The notes: a model not told the origin generated them from the sequence alone. A DNA stretch of 64,000 nucleotides from an uncultured bacterium (GCA_965372795.1 CBDVDR010000016.1:19119-83118), one strand, 5' to 3'; positions 19,466 to 44,970 are shown, numbered from the stretch's first letter. A program made the numbers and translations.

Positions 19466-19539
19466 GGGCGATTAGCTCAGCTGGTTAGAGCACATGCCTT
19501 ACACGCATGGGGTCATAAGTTCGAATCTTATATCGCCCA
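19466..19539 (+). tRNA. tRNA-Val(TAC)
   Basis: Cloverleaf: gggcgat/atcgccc acceptor, catgc-cttacac-gcatg anticodon arm, GTTCGA T-loop. Confidence 0.95.
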
Positions 19540-19615: not shown

Positions 19616-19689
19616 GGGGTTGTAGTTCAGTTGGTTAGAACGCCTGCCTGTCACGCAGGAGGCCGCGAGTTCGAGTCTCGTCAACCCCG
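19616..19689 (+). tRNA. tRNA-Asp(GTC); integration target (attL)
   Basis: ggggttg/caacccc acceptor, cctgc-ctgtcac-gcagg anticodon arm, GTTCGAG T-loop; followed by ctt rather than cca. Confidence 0.95.
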
Positions 19690-21153
19690 CTTAATTTTCA
19701 AATTGCCCCCTTCAGCAAATATGTTGAAGGGTTTTCTGTATGTAACACAAAGACTTCCATCATCAATTGTACAGTTCGAAAGTAAGTATTTGAGCAAGTG
19801 TCTTCGATCATCGTTTGATTGATGTAAGTACAAGTCATATGCTTGTTTTGCAAGTTCGATAATCTGGCTACCCATTTCGAGGTATTCATGATTTGCATGA
19901 CGATGTTTGGAAATCTGTATTTCAATTTGGCGAAGCTCAGTATTCCACTCATAGGATTTTCTTTTCCAGAAATCTTCATCAATTAAACCATTCAACCTAT
20001 CTTCATATGCTTTCTCCTGATAGCCTCTGATACGATCGTAACGATTTTGTAAGGATTTTATAGATTTTCTTTGAAACTCTTCCTTGTCTGAGTGACTTTC
20101 ACGAAGAGCAGCTTTCAACCCCTCAGCAGCTTTTGAAGATAGTGATATTCGCTTTACTACTTCACCAAATAATTCACTGAGCCTATTTTCTTTTACTGAG
20201 TTTTTACATTTACCTTTAAACTGAGTACATCGATAATATATATACTTACCTTTTTTGATATCAGGTGTCATAGAGCATCCACATCTATCGCATTTGACAA
20301 GTCCTCTAAAAGCAAAGTTTCGTTTTGTCATTTTTGGAGTTTTCCCACCATTCAAAACTTGTTGTACAGCATTGTAGAGTTCAACTGATATGATTGCTTC
20401 ATGGATTCCGTTTTCATATAAAACATTCTTGTACTCAAAATACTTACCTGTATAGATTTGATTTTTGAGAATTCGATGAATTCCTGCTTTGTTGATTTTC
20501 TTTCCGTTCACAGACCTCAAGCCTAAATTATATGCGAACTCTTCCAAAAACTTGAGAGAATAGCGTCCGGTAGCATACTCTTCAAAAAGTCTTGCCACAA
20601 AAGGAGCTTTTTGAGAGTCTACATAAATCAAATGGTCTTGTAAATTTCTCATATATCCAATTGGAGATTTTGATGGCCACTGACCAAGAGAAGCTTTTTT
20701 ATTCATACCTTTCTTCACTTCTTCGGACAAATTGTCTATATAATTCTTTGCCATGAGAACCTTGATGCCATGTACAAACTTCGAATGAGATGAACTTTCA
20801 CTTGAGATAATCCCACCTTCTTTGACAAGATGAACTATAGTATCCAAATCTTCAAGATCAACAAAATCTCTGAAGTTGCGATAGAGTCGATCAGTTTTTT
20901 CAACCAAAATTGTTCGAACAAATGGATTAGCTTTTATAAAGTCGATCATCTGACCATATTGAGTTCGACCTACTGATTTTGCTGTCTCCTCATCAGTATA
21001 TTCGTGCACAACCTCAAAACTATTCGTTAGTGCATAATCTCGTAACAAGTCGAGTTGTGCATCTATAGAAAATCCTTCCTCAGCCTGCCGCTCAGAGGAA
21101 ACTCGTGCGTAAATAACTGCTTTCTTTTCTATTTGTTTCTGATATTTTTTCAT
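19681..21153 (-). CDS. Large serine recombinase (resolvase, recombinase, zinc-ribbon and coiled-coil domains)
   Basis: YARVSS catalytic Ser, TDRLYRN, PIGY, HEAIIS, CDRC...YYRC; stop codon lies inside tRNA-Asp. Confidence 0.95.
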   Translation of the reverse strand: MKKYQKQIEKKAVIYARVSSERQAEEGFSIDAQLDLLRDYALTNSFEVVHEYTDEETAKSVGRTQYGQMIDFIKANPFVRTILVEKTDRLYRNFRDFVDLEDLDTIVHLVKEGGIISSESSSHSKFVHGIKVLMAKNYIDNLSEEVKKGMNKKASLGQWPSKSPIGYMRNLQDHLIYVDSQKAPFVARLFEEYATGRYSLKFLEEFAYNLGLRSVNGKKINKAGIHRILKNQIYTGKYFEYKNVLYENGIHEAIISVELYNAVQQVLNGGKTPKMTKRNFAFRGLVKCDRCGCSMTPDIKKGKYIYYRCTQFKGKCKNSVKENRLSELFGEVVKRISLSSKAAEGLKAALRESHSDKEEFQRKSIKSLQNRYDRIRGYQEKAYEDRLNGLIDEDFWKRKSYEWNTELRQIEIQISKHRHANHEYLEMGSQIIELAKQAYDLYLHQSNDDRRHLLKYLLSNCTIDDGSLCVTYRKPFNIFAEGGNLKIKRG

Positions 21154-21184
21154 GGATCATATTACCGATATTATCCGCTATATG

Positions 21185-21400
21185 TCAACGGATATTTTTT
21201 TTGGTTCCTTTCTCTTTTTTCTTCCATTCATGTAAAGTTGTAAAAAAACCAGCAACGTTTGTGTTAATTTCATCGGTGCAGTCAACAGATATGTATTCTC
21301 TTGATAAAATACTCCAATGAAATCGGCTTGATCTCAAGTTCTGCTTCAAAGTAGATATTGAACTATCACTCAACCTATCTTTTGTTTGCTTTCGAGTCAT
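21185..21400 (-). CDS. Small hypothetical protein upstream of the recombinase (possible directionality factor)
   Basis: 71 aa, co-oriented and overlapping the Rep-like gene; function inferred from position only. Confidence 0.4.
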   Translation of the reverse strand: MTRKQTKDRLSDSSISTLKQNLRSSRFHWSILSREYISVDCTDEINTNVAGFFTTLHEWKKKEKGTKKNIR

Positions 21401-22565
21401 AGGAATTCTCCTTTCTTGAATTCAGCTTATTGTCTGAGATGAAATCTATATAAGACTGCAATAAGTTTTTGATATCCTGTGGAACTTGATATACACCTTT
21501 GTCAATACGAGTAACCAGCCCTTGATTGAGAAGTTTGGCAAGAAGGTACTTGGATGAGTTATTGGCTATCACTCTACCAGTCGTTGCAAGGAGAGATATC
21601 AACTTTATAAACTGTGGATGATTTTTACACGCACGACTCAGATTGTAGAGGATTTGCCCCTTATCTGACTGTCCCGCCAATGCGGATTGAGATTGCTCAA
21701 AAAATTTGAGTATATTTGTGATTGATCGCTGATACCAGCAATCGATAATATGGTCGAGAGTCACTATGGTGTTCGATCCAATCACAGAGGTGCCAACAAG
21801 TTCTCGGATACGCCTACTGTTGAGTAGAGTTTCTACTCGCAAGGAGTCGACAAATTTCGGATAAATCATTATTCTCTCATTCTTCAACGGAAAAGCGGCA
21901 AGTCCATAGGAATTACGAGTTATTTTATCTCGTGGTAATAGTACTGTATAAGGCTTTGCTTCGTTATTTTTGAACATAGATTGAAAGAGCTTACGGTTTT
22001 TTTCAGTAAATAAGATCGCATCTTCTATGAACATATCCCAATAAAGTTCAAGATGTGTAATAGATATTGAGGGTTCTGTAAAGCTCAAATTATTTGAGGT
22101 TGAAGACTGCTTCATGATTTCAACGATAGATCCAAGTAAATCTTCGAGAGTATTGTGTAGTAACGACCTTGTTTCAGCTGCCAGAATCGCTCGATCATGA
22201 GTTGTGTATAAATCCTGAGGTAAAAAGTTATCATTATCATCCAATGATTCTAAAGTCAAGAAATTGAATGATTTATGCCTTAGTATACGAGTAGGATTGA
22301 TTGTGACATCCATAAACAAGGTTACAGAGTTTGTGGTTCGATTGTGATAAAGTTTCATTTCTGCCAAAATTCGGTTTTGACGTCTTGTACGGAGTTTCAA
22401 GAAGGCATATTTCTGATAGCTATGTCTTATAGTGAAGAGATCGTTACCAAGATTTACAACAGTCCTTGCGAATTCATCTGAGTTCATCCCAGCAGCCGAA
22501 AAACCAGCGACTTTCATCTGTACCTTATCTATCATGACCATCTCGGATCTGAGAATATCAATCAT
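21375..22565 (-). CDS. Putative replication-initiation-like protein with C-terminal wHTH
   Basis: ITHLELYWD and IMIYPK...LRVETLL motifs reminiscent of rolling-circle Rep (gene II/X-like); LLNQGLVTRIDKGVY wHTH-like end. Confidence 0.45.
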   Translation of the reverse strand: MIDILRSEMVMIDKVQMKVAGFSAAGMNSDEFARTVVNLGNDLFTIRHSYQKYAFLKLRTRRQNRILAEMKLYHNRTTNSVTLFMDVTINPTRILRHKSFNFLTLESLDDNDNFLPQDLYTTHDRAILAAETRSLLHNTLEDLLGSIVEIMKQSSTSNNLSFTEPSISITHLELYWDMFIEDAILFTEKNRKLFQSMFKNNEAKPYTVLLPRDKITRNSYGLAAFPLKNERIMIYPKFVDSLRVETLLNSRRIRELVGTSVIGSNTIVTLDHIIDCWYQRSITNILKFFEQSQSALAGQSDKGQILYNLSRACKNHPQFIKLISLLATTGRVIANNSSKYLLAKLLNQGLVTRIDKGVYQVPQDIKNLLQSYIDFISDNKLNSRKENSYDSKANKR

Positions 22566-22963
22566 GACAAGAATCTTTCAATGTAAAATTTTTGACGTAA
22601 AATACATCTATAGTATAAAGGTGAGACCATTGACTTGTTGTTTAATGCGATTAGCATAATAGTTATAATTTGGCACAAAACATTATCTCCTTATCCAACA
22701 AAATGTTACGAGATTCATCTTCTTCTCTTAATCTATTGTACAACTACCTAAGTTGACTATAAGTAGAGTTAGTTAGTAAGCATGATATTTTTTTGTTATG
22801 CGATTTCAGTCAGGAGAATGGAGTTAAAAGGACGCATTATTTGCATAGCAAACCGCTCATGGACTTATTAAACAAGTGTCGGCTCGTCGCATCGGGTTGA
22901 GACAGAAACTGCCTCAGCGACCTTGCATTTGAATCTATCAATGCATCCATACAAGATTAACCT

Positions 22964-23000
22964 AATGATACTTATAGTCCGTAGACCTATAAGTATCATT
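22964..23000. promoter_or_regulatory. Palindromic operator (C-box-like) upstream of the XRE gene
   Basis: Perfect 14-bp inverted repeat aatgatacttatag-N9-ctataagtatcatt. Confidence 0.65.
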
Positions 23001-23037
23001 GGATTATCCTACATATATCTTAATTGATTGGTAATAG

Positions 23038-23265
23038 ATGATGGATGATCCAAAGATAAAATTCGGAAAAATGGTAAGACAGAAACGACTTCAGTGGAAT
23101 TATTCTCAAGAAGAACTTGCTCATCGTTGTGATCTCGACAGAACTTATATTGGTGGAGTTGAACGAGGAGAACGCAATATAAGCCTAATAAATATTTGTA
23201 AAATTGCCAAAGCTTTGAATACTACACCCAAAACCTTACTCGACTTCGGTAAAATCGAGTATTGA
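23038..23265 (+). CDS. XRE-family HTH regulator (R-M controller C-protein-like)
   Basis: SQEELAHRCDLDRTYIGGVERGERNISLINI. Confidence 0.9.
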   Translation: MMDDPKIKFGKMVRQKRLQWNYSQEELAHRCDLDRTYIGGVERGERNISLINICKIAKALNTTPKTLLDFGKIEY

Positions 23266-23416
23266 ATTTAATTATTGTGTATTTCGAAAAATTCCTTCAA
23301 AAGACCTCATAGATTTTTAATTAAATAAACCTATAGATTTATATTTTCCGCTTGTATGGAATGTTGACTATAAGTATCATATTGTAAGCGCAAACTAATA
23401 TATGAGGGTATAATCG

Positions 23417-24115
23417 ATGTTTTTAAAAGTACTTTTAATATCAATAATTTTATTGATTAATATTCCATTTTCTGGATATTCACAGACAAAATTTATTGAA
23501 AATCGTAAAAAGTTAGAAATCGCAGTAAATGAAAACATATCTACACATTACTTATTCAAAAATTGTCAACTTCAGGATGATAACAAATGGTTAAGTATTG
23601 AACTAAAATCAAAAACTTGGAAGAATCCTAATGACACAAAAGCTCTAATTGATTCTATCATAAAAATTACTAAAAACTTTGCACCGTTTAGTGCTAATAA
23701 AAATTCGGAATTTCAAATTTATATTGATGAACCTAAAAGTGGATTCCCTATAGCAACTGTACGATCTTATTCTACAAAGACCTACTATGATTATTCATTT
23801 TCTGAGTGGCAAACGAAAGCTAAAGAAAAGTTATTCGGAATAAGGCAATCTACTCAGTATGTTTCAGAAGAAATAAAGTTTGGCAGGCCAATAATGTCAA
23901 TGTGGTCTGGTGTTAAGCTATATTATGGATCTGGCTCATCAAAAAAGTTTGTTGGTAAAATAGTATGTTTTAGTGGTGATCTTGTTATGATCAAATATCC
24001 GTCTGGGTCTATAGAATCGAAATACAGAAGCGTAATTATAGACTTGAAAGGAAAGTGGTATATTGACAAGAATGATCCTGCTTTAAATGCGATGGAGTAC
24101 TATACTTGTGACTAA
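23417..24115 (+). CDS. Secreted hypothetical protein
   Basis: Signal peptide, GAGG RBS. Confidence 0.6.
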   Translation: MFLKVLLISIILLINIPFSGYSQTKFIENRKKLEIAVNENISTHYLFKNCQLQDDNKWLSIELKSKTWKNPNDTKALIDSIIKITKNFAPFSANKNSEFQIYIDEPKSGFPIATVRSYSTKTYYDYSFSEWQTKAKEKLFGIRQSTQYVSEEIKFGRPIMSMWSGVKLYYGSGSSKKFVGKIVCFSGDLVMIKYPSGSIESKYRSVIIDLKGKWYIDKNDPALNAMEYYTCD

Positions 24116-24273
24116 TAACACCAAATTGAGTTTGCCAATTATTATTTTTGAATTTTTTATCTTTTGCCCTTATAAATCGCCTCATATTTACTTAAACAAA
24201 TGTGAAACTATCCACTTTACAAATCCTTTCTTACCGCTTATTTTTATGTAATTGTACCACAGGAGCTTACGTA

Positions 24274-24918
24274 ATGATCGAGTTGTTTCCGGTTGATAAA
24301 GTCAACCAAATGAGATGCAAATTGGAAACAGCCAGAGCTCCGGCAGGTGATACTCTTAAACAAAATGGATGGCACAAGAGTGACCTGTCACCAAATGTAT
24401 TACTGGAAACGCTTGAAAGTCTTTGGCTTAAAGAAGGATATACACTTCGAGGATACTTATATAAATCAGGTGAAAACGGAAACGGCATTGTTTGGGCAAT
24501 GCCAATCGACTCACCTTTTCCAGAACCTTCAGAGTGCACCAGTCTTACCGATCAGTTTCTTGAACCACCAAAACCAGAACACGCTCTTGATGATTTCATG
24601 GAAGCAATTGATGGTGATCACACAGCTTGGTCATACATGTGTTCCTCAATCCTTGGCCGAGAATTACTTGAGTTCGGTGCAAGATGGCATGGCTGTGAAT
24701 GGAGTTATGAAAGGATTGTATCTTTTAAGAAGTTATATAGAATATGTAGGTTAAAACCAATAACTGATAAATCTTTCATTTATAATCCAATTGTAATTAT
24801 AAATCAGATTGTAATTTGTTCTTTATTTACTATTCATGAGCAATATGGTTTTATTAAGGAGAACAGAGACATTTACCAGAAAGGGAATTATGAAAATAAT
24901 AATAACGATCAAAAATAA
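24274..24918 (+). CDS. Hypothetical protein
   Basis: AGGAG RBS before MIELF; RELLEFGARWHGCEW motif; C-terminus looks degenerate. Confidence 0.5.
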   Translation: MIELFPVDKVNQMRCKLETARAPAGDTLKQNGWHKSDLSPNVLLETLESLWLKEGYTLRGYLYKSGENGNGIVWAMPIDSPFPEPSECTSLTDQFLEPPKPEHALDDFMEAIDGDHTAWSYMCSSILGRELLEFGARWHGCEWSYERIVSFKKLYRICRLKPITDKSFIYNPIVIINQIVICSLFTIHEQYGFIKENRDIYQKGNYENNNNDQK

Positions 24919-24947
24919 TAAAATTTGGGATAAATATTATACCTTAA

Positions 24948-25793
24948 TCAACTTACTCGAATAGTTATTTTTTTTGATTTCATATTCCTCATAAAATTAC
25001 TAATATGCCTTAAACCATCTATAAATGCATACCTACATTCTCTATAAGTTTTATGTGCATCTTTTTTCGATCTTGGAGCATGAACAGCTGGATTACCAAA
25101 ATCACTTACAAAAGATTTCATCCCTCCAATAATAGCAGAAGTATCGCTAAACTGTCTGGCATCATTCATGTCATTCAAAATATCCGCTAAATCTTTTGAA
25201 AGAGTTGAAGTAGTTAGCCAATCTTTTTTGATACTTGATTTAACAGCACTTTTGACCATTTCTTCAATAAGGATTCGGAGATCACCTACACCTGAACGAG
25301 GATCATTTTGATATTTATCAAATGCATCAAGTACCCTTACTTTGACTTTACCTTTAATGTCCTTTGTTTTTTCGTTAAATTCCTTTCCTTTTATATGTTG
25401 AACTAAAGGTACAGTTGACTCTTGAAATTTCGCATCACCATTATCATCTACTATTATTATTCCATATCCATGAGATAATAATTTCTTGAATTCTGCTTTA
25501 TTTTTTTTATCGTTGTATAGCCCTTCAGTACATACACAATAAATTTCAATTGGTATAGTTACTTCTATGATATCAGCCAAATATAATTTAAAAACTGTTG
25601 GGTAAGGCATTTGAGATACTTCAGCAACTAAAATTCTTTTTCGAGTAGTTTCAAAATGTAAAGCAGGTGCCCAATCGATCTCATGTGAGATCGGTTGCGA
25701 TACTTTTGGTTGTGTTTGGAATCGCTCACTTAAAAATTTATGAGCAGAATTGAACAAAAAATCATCTCCAGATGATAAGCCCTTGTATGACAT
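24948..25793 (-). CDS. Hypothetical protein, possible PD-(D/E)xK-like N-domain plus HEPN-like C-domain
   Basis: Last gene of the MTase operon; LVAEV...GYGII and FGNPAVH motifs; fold assignment is inference. Confidence 0.45.
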   Translation of the reverse strand: MSYKGLSSGDDFLFNSAHKFLSERFQTQPKVSQPISHEIDWAPALHFETTRKRILVAEVSQMPYPTVFKLYLADIIEVTIPIEIYCVCTEGLYNDKKNKAEFKKLLSHGYGIIIVDDNGDAKFQESTVPLVQHIKGKEFNEKTKDIKGKVKVRVLDAFDKYQNDPRSGVGDLRILIEEMVKSAVKSSIKKDWLTTSTLSKDLADILNDMNDARQFSDTSAIIGGMKSFVSDFGNPAVHAPRSKKDAHKTYRECRYAFIDGLRHISNFMRNMKSKKITIRVS

Positions 25794-26759
25794 TTACTTG
25801 CCCCCCAAAATTCTCTGGAGGAATTCTCTAAGATTATTTAATTTTTCAACAAATTCATCATCCAATTGAGAGACAAGATTCTCCTTCAACAAAATATCAA
25901 AATAAGCGTTTAAGTGATCAATTTGACTGATTGCCTTTTTTTCATCATAACCAAATTCTACTGTCCTTTCATACACCTCACGAATGCCTACTTCATTATT
26001 GGAATTGAACAAACTTTTCAAAGCAGATTCAGCTTGAGACTTTTTGATACCGATATTATCGATTGCAGTAGCAATTTTGGATAATTGCCTAAAATCTGTA
26101 ACAGCTCCAATTGTCCCTTCACGGTACTTGTCAATAAGCGTATTTCTTATTCCGTCAATATTGGATTCAAATTGAGGAAGTCTTTTGGTAATAGTCTTGA
26201 GAGACCGTTCCATTTCAAGAAAGAAATCCTCTGTAATTTTCTGACGAGATTTAGGAAGCTGCAATTCTTCCATCAACATTTGCTCAAACTGTGGAGGCAT
26301 CTCCATAAGTAATTGGCATCTACGTATCTGCCCTCTTGTAAGACCAGTCTCTTTACTCAACTCTATCTCATTTGGTGGGTACCCTTTTTCTTCTGTAAAT
26401 AAATCAATAATTCGTCCTAAGTTTTTTGCAATTGTAAAGTAATCCCACTGTTCTCGAAGTGCGTGAATATTCGACATCAACAATAAGTTTTCTAATTCTG
26501 AAGGACGATCCTGTATAATTGCTGGGATTTTATCAAGAGCAAGTTTTATTGAACATCGCCATCTTCTCTCTCCATCAATGAGAAAGTACTTGTCTTTATG
26601 TTCAAAAACTGAAATTGGAACTTGAATACCATGTTCAGAAATAGACACCATAAGGATCTCCATTTCTTCTTGACGAAAAACCATTCTTGGATTTTCAGGG
26701 TTTGGCTGAATATCTTTAGGTGATATTTGCTTTAACCTTTTTATTTTTGTTTTATCCAT
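25794..26759 (-). CDS. ParB/Srx N-terminal domain protein
   Basis: IQPNPENPR, SISEHGIQVPI, LIDGERRWRC. Confidence 0.85.
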   Translation of the reverse strand: MDKTKIKRLKQISPKDIQPNPENPRMVFRQEEMEILMVSISEHGIQVPISVFEHKDKYFLIDGERRWRCSIKLALDKIPAIIQDRPSELENLLLMSNIHALREQWDYFTIAKNLGRIIDLFTEEKGYPPNEIELSKETGLTRGQIRRCQLLMEMPPQFEQMLMEELQLPKSRQKITEDFFLEMERSLKTITKRLPQFESNIDGIRNTLIDKYREGTIGAVTDFRQLSKIATAIDNIGIKKSQAESALKSLFNSNNEVGIREVYERTVEFGYDEKKAISQIDHLNAYFDILLKENLVSQLDDEFVEKLNNLREFLQRILGGK

Positions 26760-27990
26760 ATGCTCTCCTACCCAATATTAACAACTCCTTTGCGGAGTAT
26801 TTTCCATATCCTTTTGAAGCACCCAGAGTAGAGTGCTCTATATCAACTTCGTTAGTAATCTCAACTGAACGATACTTTTTTTTCATAAGTTTGGGAAGTT
26901 GTTCTTTCGCATTCGGTAATAATCCTACTTCAGGATAACTGATAATAAAATCTGATCCAATTCCAGCGACAGAATCTATTAAATCAGTAAAAGCGTTCAT
27001 TACTTTTGGAGAACTACAAAAAGGTGACTGAAATCGATCCCCCCTATACCTACCAACTCCTGATGCTGTTGGATAGTCGTATAGTATCAAGGTTTCATAC
27101 AGATGATAATATCTGGAATATTGGTCATTAGTATAAGGAGGGTCAGCGTAAACAACAGCAGGTTTAATTTTATAACGCATCATTTTATTCACGAGTTCAA
27201 GTGCATCTTCATTAAAAACTCGATTGGTACTTCTCCAATCTGCCCAACCAATAGGAACCAATTCATCAATCGCATCTAACCAGTGAAGCCATACTGATTT
27301 CTTTCTTTGATTTACAAAATGCCTACAATTATTATCCTTTATTTTGAGATATTGTGCGAAATGTCCAGTTGTTGTAGAAACCTTACAAGTAGCTTGGCAA
27401 AGTGCAAGTATCCACCATCGATGTAAATCTTGATCGATAACTCTATTCTCTCTAAGAACATCAATAGAATATCTAATTGAATCTATCTCGATAGCCTGTT
27501 TTAAGCCTATATACCCACCAGCAAATGTGATAGAGAATAAACGATATGGAAACGTAGATGATTTTCTTTTGAGTCTTTTACTTTCAGACTGAAGTTTTGA
27601 GTCATTACCAACATGAGGTAGCTGGCTGTAAAAGTCTCCAAAACTCTCAGGACTTGAGGTTACCAGTTCTTCTAATTCTTGATCAATATATTTTACAAAC
27701 CTATTGTATAATTTTTCTTTATTCCTCTCAAAATTACTGTATGCTTTGTCGGCGGCTTCTATTGATGTCAAACTGATGTTCTTGGATTGAAAAAAAGCTT
27801 TTGCAACTGTAGATGCGAATACTTGAATATCATTACACCAAACTGATCTTTCAGTGCCTATTGATTCTCCAACAGCACATACTCCTGAAAATAAGTCAAG
27901 AAAAGGACCTCTCTTCAAGTTATGTGTAATTTCAGCGATTGTAGGAGCTATCCTGCGCTTAGTTCCCATGTAACTTACCGATATTGTCAA
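26752..27990 (-). CDS. DNA adenine methyltransferase (alpha-class order)
   Basis: YMGTK, DLFSGVCAVG, ND, YADPPY...QYSRYYH. Confidence 0.88.
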   Translation of the reverse strand: MTISVSYMGTKRRIAPTIAEITHNLKRGPFLDLFSGVCAVGESIGTERSVWCNDIQVFASTVAKAFFQSKNISLTSIEAADKAYSNFERNKEKLYNRFVKYIDQELEELVTSSPESFGDFYSQLPHVGNDSKLQSESKRLKRKSSTFPYRLFSITFAGGYIGLKQAIEIDSIRYSIDVLRENRVIDQDLHRWWILALCQATCKVSTTTGHFAQYLKIKDNNCRHFVNQRKKSVWLHWLDAIDELVPIGWADWRSTNRVFNEDALELVNKMMRYKIKPAVVYADPPYTNDQYSRYYHLYETLILYDYPTASGVGRYRGDRFQSPFCSSPKVMNAFTDLIDSVAGIGSDFIISYPEVGLLPNAKEQLPKLMKKKYRSVEITNEVDIEHSTLGASKGYGKYSAKELLILGRRAYG

Positions 27991-28358
27991 TCAACCTCGC
28001 TACTCATTAAAATGGATAACTAACAACTTAATTTTATTAAAATACAAATGTAAAGGAGCTTTGTCAAGTCATCAAACCCCTCATAACGATATAGTAATAA
28101 GCAACTTAAGATTAAGTTGAAGGATTGGATGAAAAACCTACTGAGTTATATTTATTCTGACTTATAAAACCACCTATAGAATATAACAATTTACAGAATC
28201 AGATCATGAAATTTTCAACTTTAAAAATAAACACAATTAAGATTTAAAAGGCAATTGCACAATACTACTTTTTACAATAATTATTCTTACCTAATTAACA
28301 TTTTATCTGAAATGTGAGATACTTTATTTTCTTTTTTTTAGGGATGCATATAGTATAA

Positions 28359-29348
28359 TTATGCTTTTTCACACAATTCCTTTTTCCATGTTAACTTCCC
28401 GAAGTAATCCAGGCACCACAAGCAAGGGTATGGATAGAGACAATTTTGATCCGACATGCTGCTCAACCTAACGCTTGTAAATTTAGACAATAACTCATAA
28501 TGGCGTGCAATACATTTTTCTAATCCTTCAACATTCACACTCCCCAACATCTCTTTTCCCATAATTGAGGGTTTATTTCCATTACATACATGAGACAGAT
28601 TACAGCAAAAAACTGCATTTCCCAAATGATCAATAGAGTATGATTGTTGATAAGCATTGCAATTAAATAAGGCACTATCCTCTCCCCAAGAACCCTCAAT
28701 CATTATCTCTGTCTTGATGTTTGGAATAATGTCACTTTTAATGAATAAGAAGATTTGTTTCGTTTCCTCATGAGAGGGTAAAAGATTGTTCTCCAATAAT
28801 CGTGGTGTAGGAACAAGAGTAAGAAACGAGTGTTGGTTTGCGCCTAACTTTGATCCCAAAAGAGCAATCTCTATAATCTCTTGTATATTAGCATTGGTCA
28901 CTACTGTTTTAAAGCTTAACGGCAATCCTTGAAGTCGGCTGAGATTAGCTGCGTCAATTACTTCAGAAAATGAGTCATTTCCTCTTAAAGTATTATGTGA
29001 AGTAGGTGATGCACCGTCCAAACTTAGACATATACTATCTAAGTATCTTTTTACCATTGGATTGGACAATACTGGTAATGTCCTTTGTTTGAACTGATAT
29101 CCGTTGCTCACAAAACTGAACTTCAGTTTTCTTTCTGCTAAAGCGACTAACATATCAGGCCAAGCAGGATGAAGTGTGGGCTCACCACCTGTAAGACTAA
29201 TATGAGTTATTCCAAAACTATACGCACTATCTAATATTTCTATAAAGACATCCAAAGGAAGATGTTTTCTGGGCTCCAATTTATCCCTCAGACAGTGAAT
29301 ACAATCACGGTTGCAAACATTCGTTAGATCTATAGATAAATCTGGCAT
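28359..29348 (-). CDS. Radical SAM enzyme with Cys-rich SPASM/twitch-like C-terminus
   Basis: CNRDCIHC, TGGEPTLHP, SLDG; C-terminal C...CC...C...CLWC. Confidence 0.9.
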   Translation of the reverse strand: MPDLSIDLTNVCNRDCIHCLRDKLEPRKHLPLDVFIEILDSAYSFGITHISLTGGEPTLHPAWPDMLVALAERKLKFSFVSNGYQFKQRTLPVLSNPMVKRYLDSICLSLDGASPTSHNTLRGNDSFSEVIDAANLSRLQGLPLSFKTVVTNANIQEIIEIALLGSKLGANQHSFLTLVPTPRLLENNLLPSHEETKQIFLFIKSDIIPNIKTEIMIEGSWGEDSALFNCNAYQQSYSIDHLGNAVFCCNLSHVCNGNKPSIMGKEMLGSVNVEGLEKCIARHYELLSKFTSVRLSSMSDQNCLYPYPCLWCLDYFGKLTWKKELCEKA

Positions 29349-29365
29349 ATAATATAACTCTTCAA

Positions 29366-29827
29366 CTAATAGGCTCTTTGACCGCTTCTTCTTGCTTGTC
29401 TTACTGCAGAGCTTACACGACCCGTTACAACAGCTCCTATTTTATGAAAATGCTCACCCTCCACTTCCATAATCGGCCTTGTATAAGTTATCTTCTTAGC
29501 ATTAGGTTTCGTTGTAATACTGACGCACTCTTTCTGTATCTGTGATGATAATAGATTGTGTCGCTTAAGGTCAACTATAAACCTATCAATGTCCTCCGAG
29601 ACATTTTCTATATCAATATTCTCATATCTTGCCGATACCAATGACATTACAGAAGACAATGGAATCCCATCAGTACTTTCCTTGATCAAACGCAAAATGC
29701 AGCATGCGGGGTCATTCAACCAAAAAGACTGCTTTGTTTCTAAATCAACAATTAATCCCTCGTCCTCAAGTGTCGATAAGATAATATCGCTTTTGAGGTT
29801 AATTACTTCTTTTATTCTCTCGTCCAC
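29366..29827 (-). CDS. PqqD/RRE-domain protein with C-terminal leader/precursor-like tail
   Basis: EDEGLIVDL...FWLN...RYE...EDIDRFIVDL RRE fold, then YTRPIM plus a short Arg/Ser-rich tail. Confidence 0.7.
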   Translation of the reverse strand: MDERIKEVINLKSDIILSTLEDEGLIVDLETKQSFWLNDPACCILRLIKESTDGIPLSSVMSLVSARYENIDIENVSEDIDRFIVDLKRHNLLSSQIQKECVSITTKPNAKKITYTRPIMEVEGEHFHKIGAVVTGRVSSAVRQARRSGQRAY

Positions 29828-30442
29828 TACGACTTACCTCCTAACCTGAACTTATATTATCCGTTCAATGAATAGTGTTAATTTCAAAGTCGTTTGAATA
29901 CAATCACTTACATTAAACATCCTTATCTTCGATAATATTATGATCTTTTTTTCGCATACTTAACAGTACGGAACTCGTTGCATGTTAGTAATATATTGAT
30001 GCGATACACGAAACACCAGTAAAAAATTCGAGTTGATTAAGTGTAATCTCTGCTTTCAAAAGCATACTGTTGCAAGATAGAGTATCCTCAATGTAAGGTG
30101 GGTACTATTGAGATTAGAGACAAAAAATCTTTAAAATCTCATTAGACCTTTCTAATTTTGTTCTTATCGCAAGAGGTCAATGATTATATAGTATCCTGAA
30201 CCTCTTCGAAGTTCCGCTAATCTTCCAAAAAGTCAAACATGATGCTCAAGGATCTTGTCTATACGGCTATAAGTTGTGTTAGAACTCATTCAGTCTGCCA
30301 ATTATGTCATCCGTTAGAGATTTGCAAACATTATCTATTCTGGGGAGCTTTTCTGTGTGATGTTATGATACTTGGGGACAGTCTACTGGTATTCAGCAGA
30401 TCAGCTATGATCTTTGAGCTGAAACCTATCACAGTGATACTT

Positions 30443-30522
30443 GACATCCAGTTGTGATAATCGTCTCGTAGAGCCCGCCATTTTTTGGAGAACCCTGATG
30501 AAATCATCGGGGTTTTTTCATG
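30443..30522 (+). repeat. att-like scar 1 (attR of the recombinase element) plus terminator
   Basis: atcgtctcgtagagcccgcca-ttttttggagaaccctgatgaaatcatcggggtttttt. Confidence 0.8.
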
Positions 30523-31961: not shown

Positions 31962-32060
31962 TGGAGTCACAGTTAAAAGTAGTGATTGCGTAGACAGCCT
32001 TCGTATTTCTTGCTCATAAATGAACAGGGCTTTTATTTGTATTTAAATAAACTACGCAGC

Positions 32061-32088
32061 AGTTCTAACAAAATCCACGAAAGCCCGC
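32061..32088 (+). repeat. Divergent att-like scar
   Basis: Ends in cccgc; minus strand reads KRAFVDFVRTAA* in the recombinase-tail register. Confidence 0.5.
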
Positions 32089-32133
32089 TTTCTTACAAAG
32101 AAAATTGAAATTTAGGCATGAATTTATGTATTT

Positions 32134-32219
32134 CATACATCAAATAGTTGCGAAGATCGTCTATTGAACCCCGCCATTTTTTGGAAGAACCCTGATGAAA
32201 TCATCGGGGTTTTTTCATG
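32134..32219 (+). repeat. att-like scar plus terminator
   Basis: catacatcaaatagttgcgaagatcgtctattgaaccccgcca followed by the same terminator as at 30491. Confidence 0.85.
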
Positions 32220-32384
32220 CCATAAATTATCTCAGATACATAGACATCAAGAACCTTGACGGTTAAGTCTATCTTGTTCTTAAGACCTGAGTATTTTTCA
32301 ATAATTATGGGGTTTACAATTATCGTTGAGTTTACTATCTTTAATAAATCGTGGAAATGTAATTTAATAATTTTAATAGAAGAT

Positions 32385-32411: not shown

Positions 32412-32459
32412 TCGTGCTATCTTATGATCAGCTAACAGTATACGTGGCAGTAATAAACT

Positions 32460-32588
32460 TATGATTCAGTCGATATGATCTCGGATACCGAGGCTGATGC
32501 GGCGATGAAGATCGCTGTGGAACTGGGAAAGGAGGTGACTATGTGGCTGAAGGAAAATCATCCGCAATTGTTGGAGAGGCAAGAATAG
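32460..32588 (+). pseudogene. C-terminal fragment of a HEPN-like protein
   Basis: YDSVDMISDTEADAAMKIAVELGKEVTMWLKENHPQLL* with no intact upstream frame. Confidence 0.45.
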
Positions 32589-33524: not shown

Positions 33525-33593
33525 CTCAAACGTTATGTAATTACCTTCCAAAGTGTTCCGCTTGCAACAGAATAGCCCGTTTTCACCTGAAAC

Positions 33594-33636
33594 CTGAATA
33601 CCACAAAAGTTTGGGGAGAGTGAGGTCCACCCCACA
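33594..33636 (+). repeat. att-like scar, second sequence family
   Basis: ctgaataccacaaaagtttggggagagtga, similar to 46270-46298; ends in ccccac. Confidence 0.5.
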
Positions 33637-33648
33637 TAGACCAAAAAA

Positions 33649-33673
33649 GCCCACGTTAATACGTGGGCATTTT
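33649..33673. terminator. Intrinsic terminator
   Basis: gcccacgt-taat-acgtgggc flanked by A- and T-tracts. Confidence 0.65.
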
Positions 33674-34359: not shown

Positions 34360-34703
34360 CCTGTCTCCTTTAATTAACACGTCAGATTATTGTAATCTTT
34401 ACTTGTCATTATATCGGCTATACTTTACATAATGTCAAGTATATTTTACATATTATCATGAAATATTTCTAATACTATCCAGAATTTAATAATATCAGGA
34501 CATTAACTTCGTTTAATTCAACAACTTGTAACAGTATTTTGGCTTGGACAAATTAACTCGAACTAAGGTATTCTAAGGTGTTAACCTTACAATACCACTT
34601 CTATTCTAACGGGTAGCTTGATTTCAGTAGTTCCTGTTCGTTAAGCACGGCAGTTTCGAATCAAAATCAGAGTTCAATGGTTTCTTGCGTTATTTCAAAT
34701 TGT

Positions 34704-34736
34704 AAATAGTTGGGAAGATCGTCTAATGAACCCCGC
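34704..34736 (+). repeat. att-like scar
   Basis: aaatagttgggaagatcgtctaatgaaccccgc. Confidence 0.8.
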
Positions 34737-34861
34737 AAAATCCTTCTCGACAATATCAACAATTAACAATATTTCAAATTCCTAAAATTAGTACTATTTA
34801 TATTATTGACTGATATATCTAATTATATTAGATTTTGATAACAATAACAATTGGAGTTGAA

Positions 34862-35164: not shown

Positions 35165-35259
35165 AGCCGGACGAGTTTTATCATTTATATCTTAAATAGT
35201 ATAATTCCCCCCGCTTCATTAAAGAAATGATTGAAGTTGTTTAACGTAATTACTCGTTC

Positions 35260-35307
35260 CATACATCAAAAAGTTGCGAAGATCGTCTAATGAGCCCCGC
35301 CATTTTT
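35260..35307 (+). repeat. att-like scar
   Basis: catacatcaaaaagttgcgaagatcgtctaatgagccccgccattttt. Confidence 0.85.
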
Positions 35308-35553
35308 ATTTACTCTGCCAATCGGTGGGGTAATTTTTTTAGCATACAGTTGAGATCATATAATCAAGTCAATAAGAGGCTTTATAAAACCCACTTTAAA
35401 AATGGGGCACCCGGTTTAAAAGATGGACTAACTAATTTTGTTGATGTTCAATGATGAATTTCTAAAAACTGAGATAATATTTTTGATTTGAAATTTTTTT
35501 GCATAAAAGAAAATTTGAATGAAGATTTTGCTGAAAAGAGAACATTTGTAATC

Positions 35554-36495: not shown

Positions 36496-39141
36496 TTATC
36501 CTGTATTTCTCATTCCGGCGGCGATTCCTACAATAGTCAGTAACAAGGCGTGACGAAGGTCCGAATCTTTGGTCATTCGACTCATTCGATATCGTTTCAA
36601 CGCTTCAACCTGTAGAATATTTAAAGTATCGGTATATGGATTCCGAACCGAAATTGATCGTTGTATTACCGGTGAGCCACTAAGCAGTTCATTCTGTCCA
36701 GTCAATTCCAACCAGCCTTTAGTGACCTCCAGCAAGTCTGTGCGAAGTTGTTTCCCAATGGGGTGCAGGACTTTTTCTGTTAGATTATTTTCATAATGTT
36801 CAGTTATATCCGGAAGTGTTTTAGCTAAAACCATCTCCTGCATCCCTACCATATTCCTGAAATATACCCAATCTTCGAGCATCTCCTGTAATTGCTTTTT
36901 ATCAAAAGTGTCATAATTAAAAATAACCTGGGTACCAAGCCAGGCTGGGAGCATCAGACGCACTTGAGTCCAGCCGAAAACCCACGGAATCGCTCGCAGG
37001 CTGTCGATATCTTTCCCCCGTTTTCGTTTTGCGGGACGACTTCCGATTGCAATCTCCTCCAGTTCAAGAATTGGTGTTGTTTGCGTAAAATAGTCAACAA
37101 ATCGTTTCTCTTCCCTGACTACCTGCCGGTATTTAGCTGTTGATTTCTCAGCAAAGCTTTCCATCATTATCCGCCATGATTCTTTTGGTTTATCAGGTGG
37201 CAACAATCTTGCCTCCAGTGCTGCCGACAAGTAGACTTCGAGTGAACGCAATGCTACACCCTGTAATCCAAATTTATATCTGATCACTTCTCCCTGCTCA
37301 GTCACACGAACTCCTCCTTGAACTGCTCCAGGCGGCTGTGAAAGCAGAGCCTGGTGTGCCGATGCTCCTCCCCGACTGATAGTTCCCCCTCTACCATGGA
37401 ACAGGGTAAGCGGTATATCATGGTGAGAACAAACAGCAGTCAATGCTTCCTGTGCTTTATACTGCTCCCAGGAAGCCGCTAAAAATCCAGCATCTTTTGT
37501 AGAATCAGAATACCCAATCATTACTTCCTGTTTTGTAACGTTTTGTCGATACCAATCAATCCTTAACAGTTTATCAATTGTATCTCCAGCTGAACGCAGG
37601 TCATCAAGAGTTTCAAATAACGGCACAACCCGTATCATTTTTTTTACTCTCGAAAGTTTTTGCAAAAAGTAAACCGCCAATACATCAGAAGGCACTTTAG
37701 CCATAGAAATAACATAAGCCCCAAGCAAAGAAAAATCCTGCGATGCTATTAGACGAAAAGTTGAAAGTAATTCAATATCTTCCGAATCAGATGGAAATGA
37801 TTTTGGCAACTTAATTTGTTCTGACTGAATTCCTTCTAACAAAAATTTCTGGCGTTCAATTTCTGTCATTGTATCAAACGGTTTCTTTCTACGAAGTTTA
37901 GTAAAGTTTGTTAGAAACTGAGTGTGTCGACCGGCATCCTGACGAATATCCAGTCGTAATAACGAATGACCAAAACAGGCCAACTTTCGAAGTACATCTT
38001 TTAACTTACCATTGGCAATTGGTTTCATATTGGTTGCGATCAGCGACTGATAACAGAGTAAAAGCGGTTCTTTTAATGCTTCAAGGGTAATAATTGAAGG
38101 TTTAAATTTTTTCCGCCTGCCATCTAAGACTTCTTTAATTTGTTTTTGATCTTTATTAAGATTTTCCAATACAGATTTTAAAAGCGCCCGGTACGGCTCT
38201 CTGCTATTGCCTACCAGTTTACGAAGTTGGGAGGAACATGTGGTCATCGATAGTTCAGAACGGATCAGTTTCAGATCTTTTATCAGCAATTCAGCAGCTT
38301 CCCACTGCCCCAACAAGAGAACTTCCTGGGTAACTTCAGCAGTAACATAAGGGTTACCGTCACGATCCCCACCCATCCAGGATGAAAACCTAATTGGGCT
38401 AAAATCGACAGGGAGAGATTCACCTAATGACTCTTGTAAAATTAGATCGATATTTCGTAAAAAGAGTGGTACAGCCTCCCACAATGTCTGCTCAACTACC
38501 GCAAATCCCCAACGGGCTTCCTCAACTGGAGTCGGTTTGGTTAATCGCAATTCATCAGTTTGCCATGCTGCCAATAGAATCCGGTGTAACGATTCCTCAT
38601 TCCAATGACGTTCCGATTTAGTTAGGTCCTCCCTGTCAAGATTGCAAAGTTTTTCAGCAATAGCATTGTACTTCTGAATCATTGTCCTACGCTGGGTTTC
38701 AGTTGGATGCGCAGTCAGGACAAAATCTATATTAGTATCCATCAGATAACGGATAATCCGCTTCTTTTCTATCCCCGCCTCAAGTAATCGCGGAAGTAAT
38801 TCTTCCAATGAGCCTTTTTGAGGATGAGGTTCAGTCAATCGTTTGTATGAAAGACGGCGGCGTACCCGGTGTTGTTGTTCAGCTATATTGGCAAGATTTA
38901 AGAACTGGTTAAATGCTTTGGCAATTAACATTAGATTTTTATTATCAAGATTCTGAATAACTCCGATTAGTTGATTCCGAGCCTCTCTATCACCGGTTCT
39001 GGCATCTTGAGAGAGTTCACGTATTTCAGTAACTTTATCAAGAATTGGTTTACCTTCCAGTGAACTGATGACAGTACCGAGAATATTTCCCAACATCCGA
39101 ATGTTTTGGCGCAAGGGTTTGTGCGGATCGACAATACTCAT
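36496..39141 (-). CDS. ppc: Phosphoenolpyruvate carboxylase
   Basis: VLTAHPTE, SWMGGDRDGNP, VMIGYSDS, FHGRGG, LRAIPWVF, GIAAGMRNTG. Confidence 0.97.
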   Translation of the reverse strand: MSIVDPHKPLRQNIRMLGNILGTVISSLEGKPILDKVTEIRELSQDARTGDREARNQLIGVIQNLDNKNLMLIAKAFNQFLNLANIAEQQHRVRRRLSYKRLTEPHPQKGSLEELLPRLLEAGIEKKRIIRYLMDTNIDFVLTAHPTETQRRTMIQKYNAIAEKLCNLDREDLTKSERHWNEESLHRILLAAWQTDELRLTKPTPVEEARWGFAVVEQTLWEAVPLFLRNIDLILQESLGESLPVDFSPIRFSSWMGGDRDGNPYVTAEVTQEVLLLGQWEAAELLIKDLKLIRSELSMTTCSSQLRKLVGNSREPYRALLKSVLENLNKDQKQIKEVLDGRRKKFKPSIITLEALKEPLLLCYQSLIATNMKPIANGKLKDVLRKLACFGHSLLRLDIRQDAGRHTQFLTNFTKLRRKKPFDTMTEIERQKFLLEGIQSEQIKLPKSFPSDSEDIELLSTFRLIASQDFSLLGAYVISMAKVPSDVLAVYFLQKLSRVKKMIRVVPLFETLDDLRSAGDTIDKLLRIDWYRQNVTKQEVMIGYSDSTKDAGFLAASWEQYKAQEALTAVCSHHDIPLTLFHGRGGTISRGGASAHQALLSQPPGAVQGGVRVTEQGEVIRYKFGLQGVALRSLEVYLSAALEARLLPPDKPKESWRIMMESFAEKSTAKYRQVVREEKRFVDYFTQTTPILELEEIAIGSRPAKRKRGKDIDSLRAIPWVFGWTQVRLMLPAWLGTQVIFNYDTFDKKQLQEMLEDWVYFRNMVGMQEMVLAKTLPDITEHYENNLTEKVLHPIGKQLRTDLLEVTKGWLELTGQNELLSGSPVIQRSISVRNPYTDTLNILQVEALKRYRMSRMTKDSDLRHALLLTIVGIAAGMRNTG

Positions 39142-39327
39142 TTGTTATTCCTTAATTAGAGAATCAATTAACCGCAACTGTATTTTCCTTCAAAGCTTCC
39201 TACAATAAGCGACAGTAAAAGAAAGAGATAAATGTGGTTTAAACAAGTTTCAAAAATAGGAGTAAGTTATAAAACTGTTTTCCTTAAAACTCAATTGATT
39301 GAAAGTGTATTTATTAATTTCTTGCTT

Positions 39328-39373
39328 CATACATCAAAAAGTTGCAAAAGTTGTCCAACGAATCCCGTCTTTT
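39328..39373 (+). repeat. att-like scar
   Basis: catacatcaaaaagttgcaaaagttgtccaacgaatcccgtc. Confidence 0.8.
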
Positions 39374-42205: not shown

Positions 42206-42236
42206 AAATTCCCTAAGATCAAGGTACGTCACTGAT

Positions 42237-42281
42237 CATACATCAAAAAGTTGCAAAAGTTGTCTAATGAATCCTGTCTTT
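42237..42281 (+). repeat. att-like scar
   Basis: catacatcaaaaagttgcaaaagttgtctaatgaatcctgtc. Confidence 0.8.
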
Positions 42282-44795: not shown

Positions 44796-44862
44796 ATGTC
44801 ATTAAAAACAAGCATTGATTAGTTTTATTCAGTCATAGTAGAACACCTGATATATTTTGGGA

Positions 44863-44943
44863 ATACATCAAAAAGTTGCGAAGATCGTCTAACTACCCGC
44901 TATTTTTTCGAGAACCCTGATGAAATTATCGGGGTTTTTTCAT
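44863..44943 (+). repeat. att-like scar plus terminator
   Basis: atacatcaaaaagttgcgaagatcgtctaactacccgc followed by aaccctgatgaaattatcggggtttttt. Confidence 0.82.
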
Positions 44944-44970
44944 ATCGTAATTTTCAGAATTCAACTTACT

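Follow-up and report, generated by a model that had tools for sequence, protein, structure and literature searches.

Recombinase gene and island ends at tRNA-Asp

The stretch of DNA analysed here (the window; 64,000 nucleotides, GCA_965372795.1, CBDVDR010000016.1:19119-83118) comes from an uncultured bacterium and carries, at the 3′ end of a tRNA-Asp gene, an island with a large serine recombinase (LSR) gene that reads antisense into the tRNA and stops there. The tRNA genes, the recombinase gene and the two island ends, with their attachment (att) sites, are listed below; positions are counted from the first nucleotide of the window, and ORF stands for open reading frame.

19466-19539, plus strand: tRNA-Val (ARAGORN, Rfam)
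19616-19690, plus strand: tRNA-Asp (GTC), B arm of attL (ARAGORN; Rfam tRNA, 74 bits)
19681-21153, minus strand: LSR of 490 amino acids, ending ...NLKIKRG* (ORF, Pfam)
19686-19690: attL core CCCGC, common to attR (read from the sequence)
30331-30477, minus strand: attR P arm and detached tail frame, RALRDDYHNWMSSITVIG..., 48 codons and a stop (30331-30333)
30474-30478: attR core CCCGC (read from the sequence)
30479-30518, plus strand: B′ arm, with CA (which completes CCA), a GAGAAC box, a hairpin (30493-30512) and a T run

The product of the gene at 19681-21153 matches the Pfam families Resolvase (3e-20), Recombinase (5.5e-11) and Zn_ribbon_recom (3.8e-10), with PF00239, PF07508 and PF13408 all above their cut-offs. 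Residues Y15, R17, V18, S19 and S20 are invariant in an alignment of 37 sequences (A1), and the catalytic serine lies in R-x-S. The model of a homologue, P0017 (54% identical), has long helices (342-446) between the zinc-ribbon strands. The fold of this homologue, not of the window protein itself, was compared with solved structures and aligned with the SPbeta integrase 9dxh_A (Z 18.1, 457 residues aligned, root mean square deviation 9.8), LI 4kis_D (Z 14.4) and Bxb1 9iu2_A (Z 14.3). Judged by its domains, its catalytic motif and the modelled fold of its homologue, the window enzyme is a large serine recombinase, i.e. a serine integrase.

An earlier note on this DNA had proposed that the recombinase ends in ...KIKRG* with its TGA supplied by tRNA-Asp. 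This is borne out by the reading frame and by the acceptor-stem sequence: the last two codons and the TGA are the reverse complement of the tRNA-Asp acceptor stem, with the TGA opposite tca at 19681-19683.

Measured from core to core (19686 to 30474), the island is 10,788 bp long and sits at the discriminator/CCA end of tRNA-Asp. Directly 3′ of the discriminator G stands ctt, not cca, and CCA is unencoded in the present state. When the tRNA side of 19686-19690 is joined to the right side of 30474-30478, the product reads ...CAACCCCG-CCA followed by a terminator. Only CCCGC is common to both island ends, and a 22-nt pattern of the tRNA end (up to three mismatches) occurs at one site in the window. 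The predicted attB would be a dyad, GTTCGAG...core...GGAGAAC, centred in the CCCC of the core, which would put the crossover inside the attL core CCCGC. A sequence pattern located the tRNA-Asp end in ten relatives; CCA follows the tRNA in four of them (L002, L003, L005 and L010), and a hairpin with a T run comes after that CCA in L002 and L010. A separate observation is that ctt... stands in place of cca in five of the ten. Between 17 and 47 kb Rfam returned nothing beyond tRNA-Val and tRNA-Asp.

Translation of the scars

Seven translations of scars had been listed in the earlier note, and all of them were reproduced. The frame at 30477 reads RALRDDYHNWMSS... over 48 codons to the stop at 30331-30333, and the one at 32087 reads RAFVDFVRTAA*. 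Those at 32173, 34735, 35299, 39367 and 42276 read RGSIDDLRNYLMYE..., RGSLDDLPNYLQFE..., RGSLDDLRNFLMYG..., RDSLDNFCNFLMYE... and QDSLDNFCNFLMYD..., respectively. Two sites can be added to that list: a core with a P′-like right arm at 35210-35214, and an arm copy at 44861-44906, which is 2 nt shorter and therefore out of frame (RVVRRSSQLF). With up to three mismatches allowed, a 34-nt arm pattern gave three sites vs. none in 100 shuffles; repeat grouping yielded five arm copies, 70-93% identical to the reference copy, and three copies of the side with CCA and terminator (84-90%). It had also been suggested that the peptide pattern of the scars persists where the DNA diverges. This holds for the 30477 and 32087 arms, but not for the five RGSLDD arms, which are close DNA copies (70-93%).

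A gene spanning attP as the rule in a large recombinase family

Homologues were collected in two protein searches, one word-indexed (6103 proteins at E ≤ 1e-20 among 7999 candidates scored; tails taken from the 120 matches listed) and one exhaustive (27,590 proteins at E ≤ 0.001; tails from the 150 matches listed). Among the matches listed, the C-termini fall in three kinds. Many homologues end in ...(K/M/W)RG*; many others carry RGRRDSNSRPPA* or LGDRDSNPD..., an antisense reading of the tRNA T-arm; and a minority, about one in ten, have tails of the type predicted from the scars. To the last kind belong P0017 (WRALRDEFLKSMNS; longer stretch ...WRALRDEFLKSMNSTEVV..), P0009 and P0023 (both ...KRGWLYEFRNFL.., with RGWLYEFRNFL in P0009) and P0029 (...MRAFVYEFRIYLKLAG, including RAFVYEFR). 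With the Trp codon from CCA included, the 30477 frame aligns to the P0017 tail at residues 490-508 (E = 1e-4, a single comparison), and the 35299 frame aligns to the P0009 tail (E = 0.005).

Genomic context gave the same picture. Of 80 loci in species-representative genomes, 77 matched at the C-terminus and 72 had their 3′ end complete; 60 of these 72 end in or abut an antisense tRNA as called by ARAGORN, seven have tRNA-like tails and five show neither. For the metagenome the numbers were 79 loci, 63 with a C-terminal match and 58 with a complete 3′ end (35 in or abutting an antisense tRNA, 11 with tRNA-like tails, 12 with neither). The stop codon lies inside the tRNA in 93 of the 95 tRNA-abutting loci, and of the 76 loci that retain CCA, 71 translate it in frame as Trp. 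Twelve isoacceptors are targeted in these 95 loci (Gln 18, Asn 17, Asp 16, Arg 13, Ile 8, His 7 and six others), and homologues at other tRNAs carry other antisense-tRNA tails.

Three paralogues in the same genome likewise read antisense into tRNA genes: C10:64722-66164 (46% identical) into tRNA-Ser(tga), C4:23600-25069 (38%) into tRNA-Ser(gct) and C7:33934-35451 (28%) into tRNA-Asn. For the C7 element, the predicted attR lies some 19 kb off, near C7:53102-53140, where an arm resembling those called type 1 in the window adjoins the tRNA-Asn core; core-plus-box scans found no attR of the C10 and C4 elements.

In another phylum, a Zixibacteria contig encodes a 490-amino-acid homologue (51% identical) that ends ...TTIKRG* in tRNA-Asp with the identical AAG CGG GGT TGA. 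A pattern scan of this record found three sites upstream, all oriented alike and the closest to attL 17 kb away. Their sequence is TGG CGG GC(C/T) (TTA/ACA) CGA GAC GAG TTT... (RA[LT]RDEF, continuing as RALRDEFLKS.. or RATRDEFLN..), with the translations W-RALRDEFLKSMNSTEVV.., W-RALRDEFLKSIYSHEV.. and W-RATRDEFLNCITTEA*, and share with attL only GCGGG (CCCGC on the other strand), as in the window. No attR was found within 10 kb of L013, L015 and L042; a whole-record pattern scan placed that of L013 at 17 kb. Three attR-type sites are spread over 47 kb of the contig G041:C13; just outside a Zixibacteria attR-type site there (L185 1-80; ~285300-285390), the inner part of the P arm recurs in inverted orientation (gtctcgtaaggcc).

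The proposal that attP lies within the 3′ end of the recombinase gene is upheld by the homologue tails, the tRNA-abutting loci, the paralogues and the Zixibacteria element. Homologues do not end at RG regardless of context, and the ..KRG* loci L013, L015 and L042 all abut tRNA-Asp (3/3). With attP inside the 3′ end of the gene, the integrated and excised forms must therefore differ at the C-terminus. A gene that spans attP is the rule in this very large LSR family, which targets the 3′ ends of many tRNA genes.

Half-site DNA behind the peptide motif

The B and P arms, in gene orientation, were set side by side.

B arm, this tRNA-Asp: CGG GGT TGA CGA GAC TCG AAC
B arm, tRNA-Asn (C7): CGG CAA GAC TCG AAC
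B arm, L089: CGG ACC GGA CGG GAC TCG AAC
P arm, type 1: CGG GG. TCA TTA GAC GAT CTT CGC AAC
P arm, C7 attR: CAA TTA GAC GAA TTT CGC AAC
P arm, L089 attR: CGG GGC TTA CGG GAC GAT TTT AGA ACT
P arm, L025: CTG GGG AGA GTG GAC ACC ATT ACG AAC
P arm, 30477: CGG GCT CTA CGA GAC GAT TAT CAC AAC
P arm, 32087: CGG GCT TTC GTG GAT TTT GTT AGA ACT

TCGAAC immediately follows GAC in the B arms. Five of the seven P arms for which DNA was at hand have a spacer of 5-6 nt and then CG(C)AAC or AGAAC; the exceptions are L109, with a larger spacing, and 30477, with a degenerate box. The comparison therefore puts GAC at a constant distance from the core and a T-loop-like box 5-6 nt further out in P. The pattern R-x3-D-x2-(R)-N/T arises because the core CGG, the GAC and the outer box are read in frame. 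The outer box gives R-N as CGC AAC and R-T as AGA ACT, so one DNA box appears in two frames. The R-x3-D-x2-R-N/T motif is largely P half-site DNA read in frame and not independent peptide conservation. Tails of distant homologues, for which only protein was compared, have R-T fixed at Trp+9/+10 (e.g. WRGCWNEVRT, WLSFYTEVRT, WLACIDEYRT), which would fit NNT CGA ACN.

In the sites of LI integrase, the motif of the zinc-ribbon domain (ZD) lies at 16-24 in attP and 5 bp nearer the centre in attB, and the recombinase domain binds the same place in both (PMC3783163, Rutherford et al. 2013). The outward shift of the box in the P arms appears to match this offset between attP and attB. As in the LI/A118-family model (PMC3783163), the sites are short, with GAC fixed and the T-loop-like box 5-6 nt outward in the window P arms; in that model, however, they lie outside the integrase gene, in protein genes, whereas here the box is the near-universal sequence of the tRNA T-loop and the P arm encodes protein.

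Signs of constraint on the tail peptide

The window arm at 30477 and the Zixibacteria arms L173/L176 are identical at 28-29 of 51 nt; 13-14 codons differ, and in 4-5 of them the change is synonymous (Ala GCT/GCC, Leu CTA/TTA, Ser AGT/TCG at codon 13, Val GTG/GTC, Ile ATA/ATT). The ratio of non-synonymous to synonymous substitution rates (dN/dS) is about 0.5-0.7 over these 17 codons, and three of the synonymous codons (13, 16 and 17) fall outside the half-site of ~27 nt. Codon-position counts among the five type-1 scars were dropped, since selection does not act on a scar as a tail where the recombinase gene is missing.

The AlphaFold model of P0017 has a helix (490-502) straight after the crossover, in a block with a predicted local distance difference test score (pLDDT) of 90, then residues 504-510 at pLDDT 66 and a disordered end. 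In P0256 a helix at 487-502 runs to the C-terminus with pLDDT 76-86. Solved serine-integrase folds align only to about residue 481, so that the tail extends past the known fold as an appendage.

Tails ending in AA or VA make up 9 of 55 candidate attP-type tails vs. 1 of 104 and 2 of 215 in the two integrated classes, the classes being set by our own regular expressions, with fragments in the 'other' class and P0150 (..CTAA) misfiled. L025 ends in KAA, L123 in MVA and L182 in NTAA. The tails nearest to this element (P0009, P0017, P0023 and window 30477) lack such an ending; the 32087 scar (..RTAA) and L182 have it. Within subfamilies, tails are conserved to the last residue (P0223/P0191; P0152/L123), in some over 20-45 residues. 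From the last conserved Phe to the tRNA runs a linker whose length falls into classes (33, 36, 78 and 168 nt) or, in single loci, is 30, 84, 87 or 93 nt; the reading frame is kept across them in 88 of 93 loci, but this evidence is weak because few independent events underlie it. Given these signs of peptide-level constraint beyond the dual-coding codons, we think that the tail is a real, probably helical, state-specific appendage of the predicted free-form enzyme.

Cargo of the island and the array behind it

Between the recombinase gene and the tail frame, the island carries the following genes.

21185-30330: cargo span (Pfam, PADLOC)
within 21185-30330: AbiEi-like helix-turn-helix (HTH) protein, a weak match
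within 21185-30330: two ORFs of no assigned family
23038-23265: C-protein HTH (Pfam/PADLOC)
25794-26759: ParB_N (Pfam)
26752-27990: D12/type II methyltransferase (Pfam/PADLOC)
28359-29348: radical SAM protein (Pfam/PADLOC)
29366-29827: PqqD-like protein (Pfam/PADLOC)

The cargo is of restriction-modification type. No recombination directionality factor was identified, though no search was aimed at one; such factors are not known to share a common family. In the integrated state an ATG within the terminator opens a 58-codon frame (30331-30507, minus strand) that encloses the entire detached tail. It lies on the same strand as the PqqD-like and radical SAM genes and just upstream of them, where a precursor gene of a ribosomally synthesized and post-translationally modified peptide would be expected, and has no family match.

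Beyond the island, at least eight further att-type sites without a recombinase extend to 44.9 kb in a cassette-like manner, bounding segments of one or two genes on both strands. They include the following.

32052-32088, minus strand: a different P-type arm with core (RAFVDFVRTAA*), abutting a P′-like remnant on its right, an attP-type junction; alternative attR
32133-32222: type-1 P arm, core, CCA and the same terminator, a second B′ copy (arm pattern, repeats)
34695-34740: type-1 P arm and CCCCGC core, no B′ side (repeats, translation)
35210-35340: core and P′-like arm, ~45 bp, type-1 P arm, core, CCA and a different terminator (35301)
39327-39372: type-1b P arm, decayed core CCCGTC (repeats)
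42236-42281: type-1b P arm, decayed core CCTGTC (repeats)
44861-44953: last type-1 P arm (2 nt shorter), core CCCGC, third B′ copy and terminator; the array probably ends here distally

Between 30.5 and 44.9 kb, each segment of one or two genes is closed by a type-1 arm and core. The genes encode an HI0933-like flavoprotein, two proteins without assignment, a small membrane protein, a nitroreductase with phosphoenolpyruvate (PEP) carboxylase, a Ser/Thr kinase-TPR protein and an APH-aminotransferase fusion. The PEP carboxylase gene (36496-39141, minus strand), a housekeeping-type gene between recombination scars, is the only copy in the genome by tblastn. The side with CCA and terminator occurs at three junctions (30479, 32175 and 44901; as grouped repeats, the second and third copies start at 32171 and 44896). 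This triplication may have come about through capture, if excision made use of an old site downstream. Genome-wide, type-1 arms are found in this array, at the predicted attR of the C7 tRNA-Asn element and once on C8, and nowhere else. The array as a whole, 25 kb of it, is the accretion picture that McMurdie et al. drew behind ssrA (PMC3146451), by analogy with their islands.

Several smaller observations were made along the array. In a sister-genus genome (L172, 891-1004) a type-1 arm is joined via CCCCGC to the remnant of a recombinase 3′ end (...IQSLLRVIIKRG|SLDDLCNFLMY), and the remnant sequence directly follows tRNA-Asp in another relative without recombinase (relatives L007 and L004). 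Two units of ~90 bp (32084-32176 and 35210-35304) consist of core, P′-like arm, ~45 bp, P arm and core. Their appearance is that of elements that have been emptied, or of a mobile mini-unit, and the tail frame that starts at the right-hand core meets its stop within the left-hand arm. At 32457-32573 and 33534-33653, protein-level conservation with two family-level relatives reaches 82% and 60% over ~40 amino acids. The matching DNA in those relatives lies ~1 kb downstream of tRNA-Asp and may be shared mobile cargo; a conserved RNA at 32457-32573 was ruled out, this being the end of a small ORF. An integron was rejected as an account of the array: no tyrosine recombinase was present among the ORFs scanned from 19.6 to 45 kb, and genes between scars lie on both strands. 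The gene adjoining the array (44971-46083) has a periodicity of 123-126 nt. At 47500-49900 there is a repeated unit of 33-50 nt, for which a multi-haem-type repeat protein is a guess, and at 63762-64000 a 71-nt direct repeat, 94% identical, with its copies 168 nt apart.

Comparison with known systems

DsiB, a CcrB-family recombinase of the ssrA islands of Dehalococcoides, was compared from its published description. Its gene lies at the attL edge and reads outward, and DsiB was proposed to reach full function perhaps on the circle alone; a ParB-domain protein and a methylation protein are part of the integration module, and the islands stand in tandem at the 3′ end of one RNA gene, some of them without recombinase, which was described as 'cis-mobilizable' and as accretion (McMurdie et al. 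2011, PMC3146451). Similarly, the window LSR gene overlaps attL and stops only in the target RNA gene, as do 93 of the 95 related loci, and the window has ParB_N (25794-26759), the D12 methyltransferase (26752-27990) and tandem segments without recombinase. The two differ in that the target here is a canonical tRNA-Asp gene and not that of transfer-messenger RNA (ssrA), and in that the shared core is 5 bp vs. a 20-bp direct repeat. Moreover, unlike DsiB with its small partner recombinase DsiA, the window LSR has no second Resolvase-domain protein beside it among the 10 other island ORFs scanned.

Myxophage Mx8 has attP in the coding sequence of int, so that integration makes a new 3′ end and turns IntP into IntX; the modified enzyme is active with changed properties, and this was presented as a molecular switch (PMC6070905). 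The Mx8 enzyme is, unlike the window LSR, a tyrosine recombinase with long att sites and a different fold and chemistry. Its attB is in tRNA-Asp genes. SSV1-type archaeal integrases, also tyrosine recombinases, have attP within int; when the element integrates into a tRNA gene, int is split in mid-gene and inactivated, in contrast to the window LSR gene. The likeness to Mx8 and SSV1 is one of layout and not of family, for only serine-recombinase domains were found in the window enzyme.

In mycobacteriophage BPs and its relatives, attP lies inside a gene as well, and on integration the repressor loses an ssrA-like degradation tag from its C-terminus; the integrase, too, reportedly bears a C-terminal proteolysis signal (PMC4557955). 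There, unlike in the window, the split gene is that of the repressor and the recombinase is of the tyrosine type. The serine integrase ORF165 of Psychrobacillus phage Perkons has its att core in frame in its own C-terminal part, and integration gives rise to chimeric ORFs (PMC13245101). Perkons, in contrast to the window element, is a phage with a protein gene (floA-like) as target and a single case, not a tRNA-targeting family. An attP within the integrase gene has also been published for RAP44-like Riemerella phages. Our literature search turned up no publication on serine integrases whose targets are canonical tRNA genes and whose own gene spans attP, and the word tRNA is absent from the main text of the LSR survey by Durrant et al. 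In principle the layout is not new: the same idea was put forward for DsiB by McMurdie et al. in 2011 (PMC3146451), and it is established for the Mx8 integrase.

Proposed mechanism and alternative explanations

In the mechanism that we consider quite probable, attP x attB recombination within CCCGC would have inserted the island at tRNA-Asp, with attP in the last codons of the LSR gene. In the long-tailed free form the terminal G* would be replaced by the tail coded at the island's far end (RALRDDYHNWMSS...), and excision would give tRNA-Asp its CCA and terminator again. The P arm would imitate the tRNA arm, its GAC box lying at equal distance from the core and its T-loop-like box, (T/A)CG(C)AAC or TAGAAC, 5-6 bp further out. 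Read in the gene frame, these boxes would yield R-x3-D-x2-R-N or R-T, and the first ~9 codons of the tail would be dual-coding. A fuller version, which we hold to be doubtful, is that ~40 bases serve as both P half-site and conserved free-form helix, with tail ends resembling a ClpXP tag in many relatives, a switch and integron-like arrays arising from re-used sites.

A number of points weigh against these proposals. No empty syntenic site was found in close relatives, the same-genus genome (L172) yielding just a scar, and 40 relatives share only the tRNA-Val/tRNA-Asp pair; the flanks of 11 relative loci showed no synteny with the DNA beyond 44.9 kb and no recombinase homologue. There was no circular contig among the 159 family loci (L013-L171), and attP-type loci had no tRNA nearby; the long-tailed attP-type proteins of the databases could be internal array junctions. 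On the DNA side, the window P′ arm, which lies within the gene, has no clear T-loop-like box at attP spacing, and arms of the RALRDEF type carry a degenerate box only (TTTCTAAAA, TATCACAAC). As for the peptide, the dN/dS of the tail rests on 17 codons, and conservation of the frame could be inheritance from one ancestor with few independent indel classes. At 48 codons, vs. 16-35 in its relatives, the window tail is the longer one; it departs from theirs after ~19 residues and may be decaying.

That the scars are a generic intergenic repeat unrelated to recombination, such as a repetitive extragenic palindrome, a miniature inverted-repeat transposable element or a terminator family, we regard as very improbable. 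They do stand between ordinary-looking genes, the sole PEP carboxylase gene among them, and most have no adjoining recombinase. Against this, their genome-wide distribution is confined to the array, the C7 tRNA-Asn attR and the one site on C8, each ends in the tRNA-Asp core, three have CCA and a terminator, and in the sister genus the same arm is joined via CCCCGC to a recombinase 3′ remnant. Another partner of attL, the core at 32084-32088 in place of 30474, is unlikely; it would make a unit of 12.4 kb with a captured B′ side, the flavoprotein gene and the tail RAFVDFVRTAA*. Its CCCGC core is identical, its P-type left arm has GTTAGAAC at the correct distance, its tail resembles that of P0029 (MRAFVYEFR...) and ends in AA, and the duplication of B′ at 30479/32175 calls for an explanation, e.g. 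capture by excision at a downstream site. What follows 32084, however, is a P′-like remnant and not a B′ side, whereas the 30477 arm is followed by CA and the terminator, exactly what restoration of the tRNA needs, and it matches tails of the closest tRNA-Asp relatives, P0017 (E = 1e-4) and the three Zixibacteria sites.

With 30474 kept as the partner of attL, the question is what the tail does. It may be without function, the gene overlapping the half-site for compactness and the apparent peptide conservation being that of a DNA site, an explanation that we find somewhat doubtful. It would account for the fall of the conserved residues on DNA boxes common to the tRNA arm, for the single box read as R-N (CGC AAC) or R-T (AGA ACT), and for the 44861-44906 copy, which retains the DNA and loses the frame; McMurdie et al. 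also thought the antisense-ssrA part unlikely to be functional (PMC3146451). It sits less well with the synonymous changes at codons 13, 16 and 17, outside the ~27-nt half-site, with subfamily tails conserved over 20-45 residues, with the enrichment of C-terminal Ala and with the frame held across linker length classes. Alternatively, integration may remove a free-form C-terminal module, degradation tag or autoregulatory helix and so change stability, activity or direction. We entertain such a genuine built-in regulatory switch tentatively, as possible but short of favoured. Precedents are Mx8 IntP/IntX (PMC6070905) and the tagged repressor and integrase of BPs (PMC4557955), and the AA/VA endings (9/55 vs. 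1/104 and 2/215; L025, L123 and L182 likewise), the tails conserved to the last residue (P0223/P0191; P0152/L123) and the helix predicted directly after the crossover are consistent with it. On the other side, that enrichment depends on tail classes drawn by our own expressions, with fragments in the 'other' class, and tails nearest this element (P0009, P0017, P0023, 30477) do not end in AA or VA; the arbitrary residues at the end of integrated forms number anywhere from 1 to ~30, which speaks for an enzyme tolerant of any tail.

Implications

Serine integrases are usually taught as inserting into protein genes and as lying beside their att sites. The window is one more example of a layout that has been in print for DsiB since 2011, and its element is a member of a very large family (the databases hold thousands of its proteins, from many phyla), in which tRNA 3′ ends are targeted and attP lies within the gene. 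A gene that spans attP gives a simple rule for locating island ends. It also suggests a route to retargeting, in which the enzyme would read a common T-loop box and the inner arm would vary with the target tRNA, and it offers a natural pair of isoforms for asking whether integration state feeds back on the integrase. If the dual-coding reading is true, each integration event would switch the stability or activity of the enzyme, and a family that re-uses old sites would build integron-like cassette arrays behind tRNA genes.

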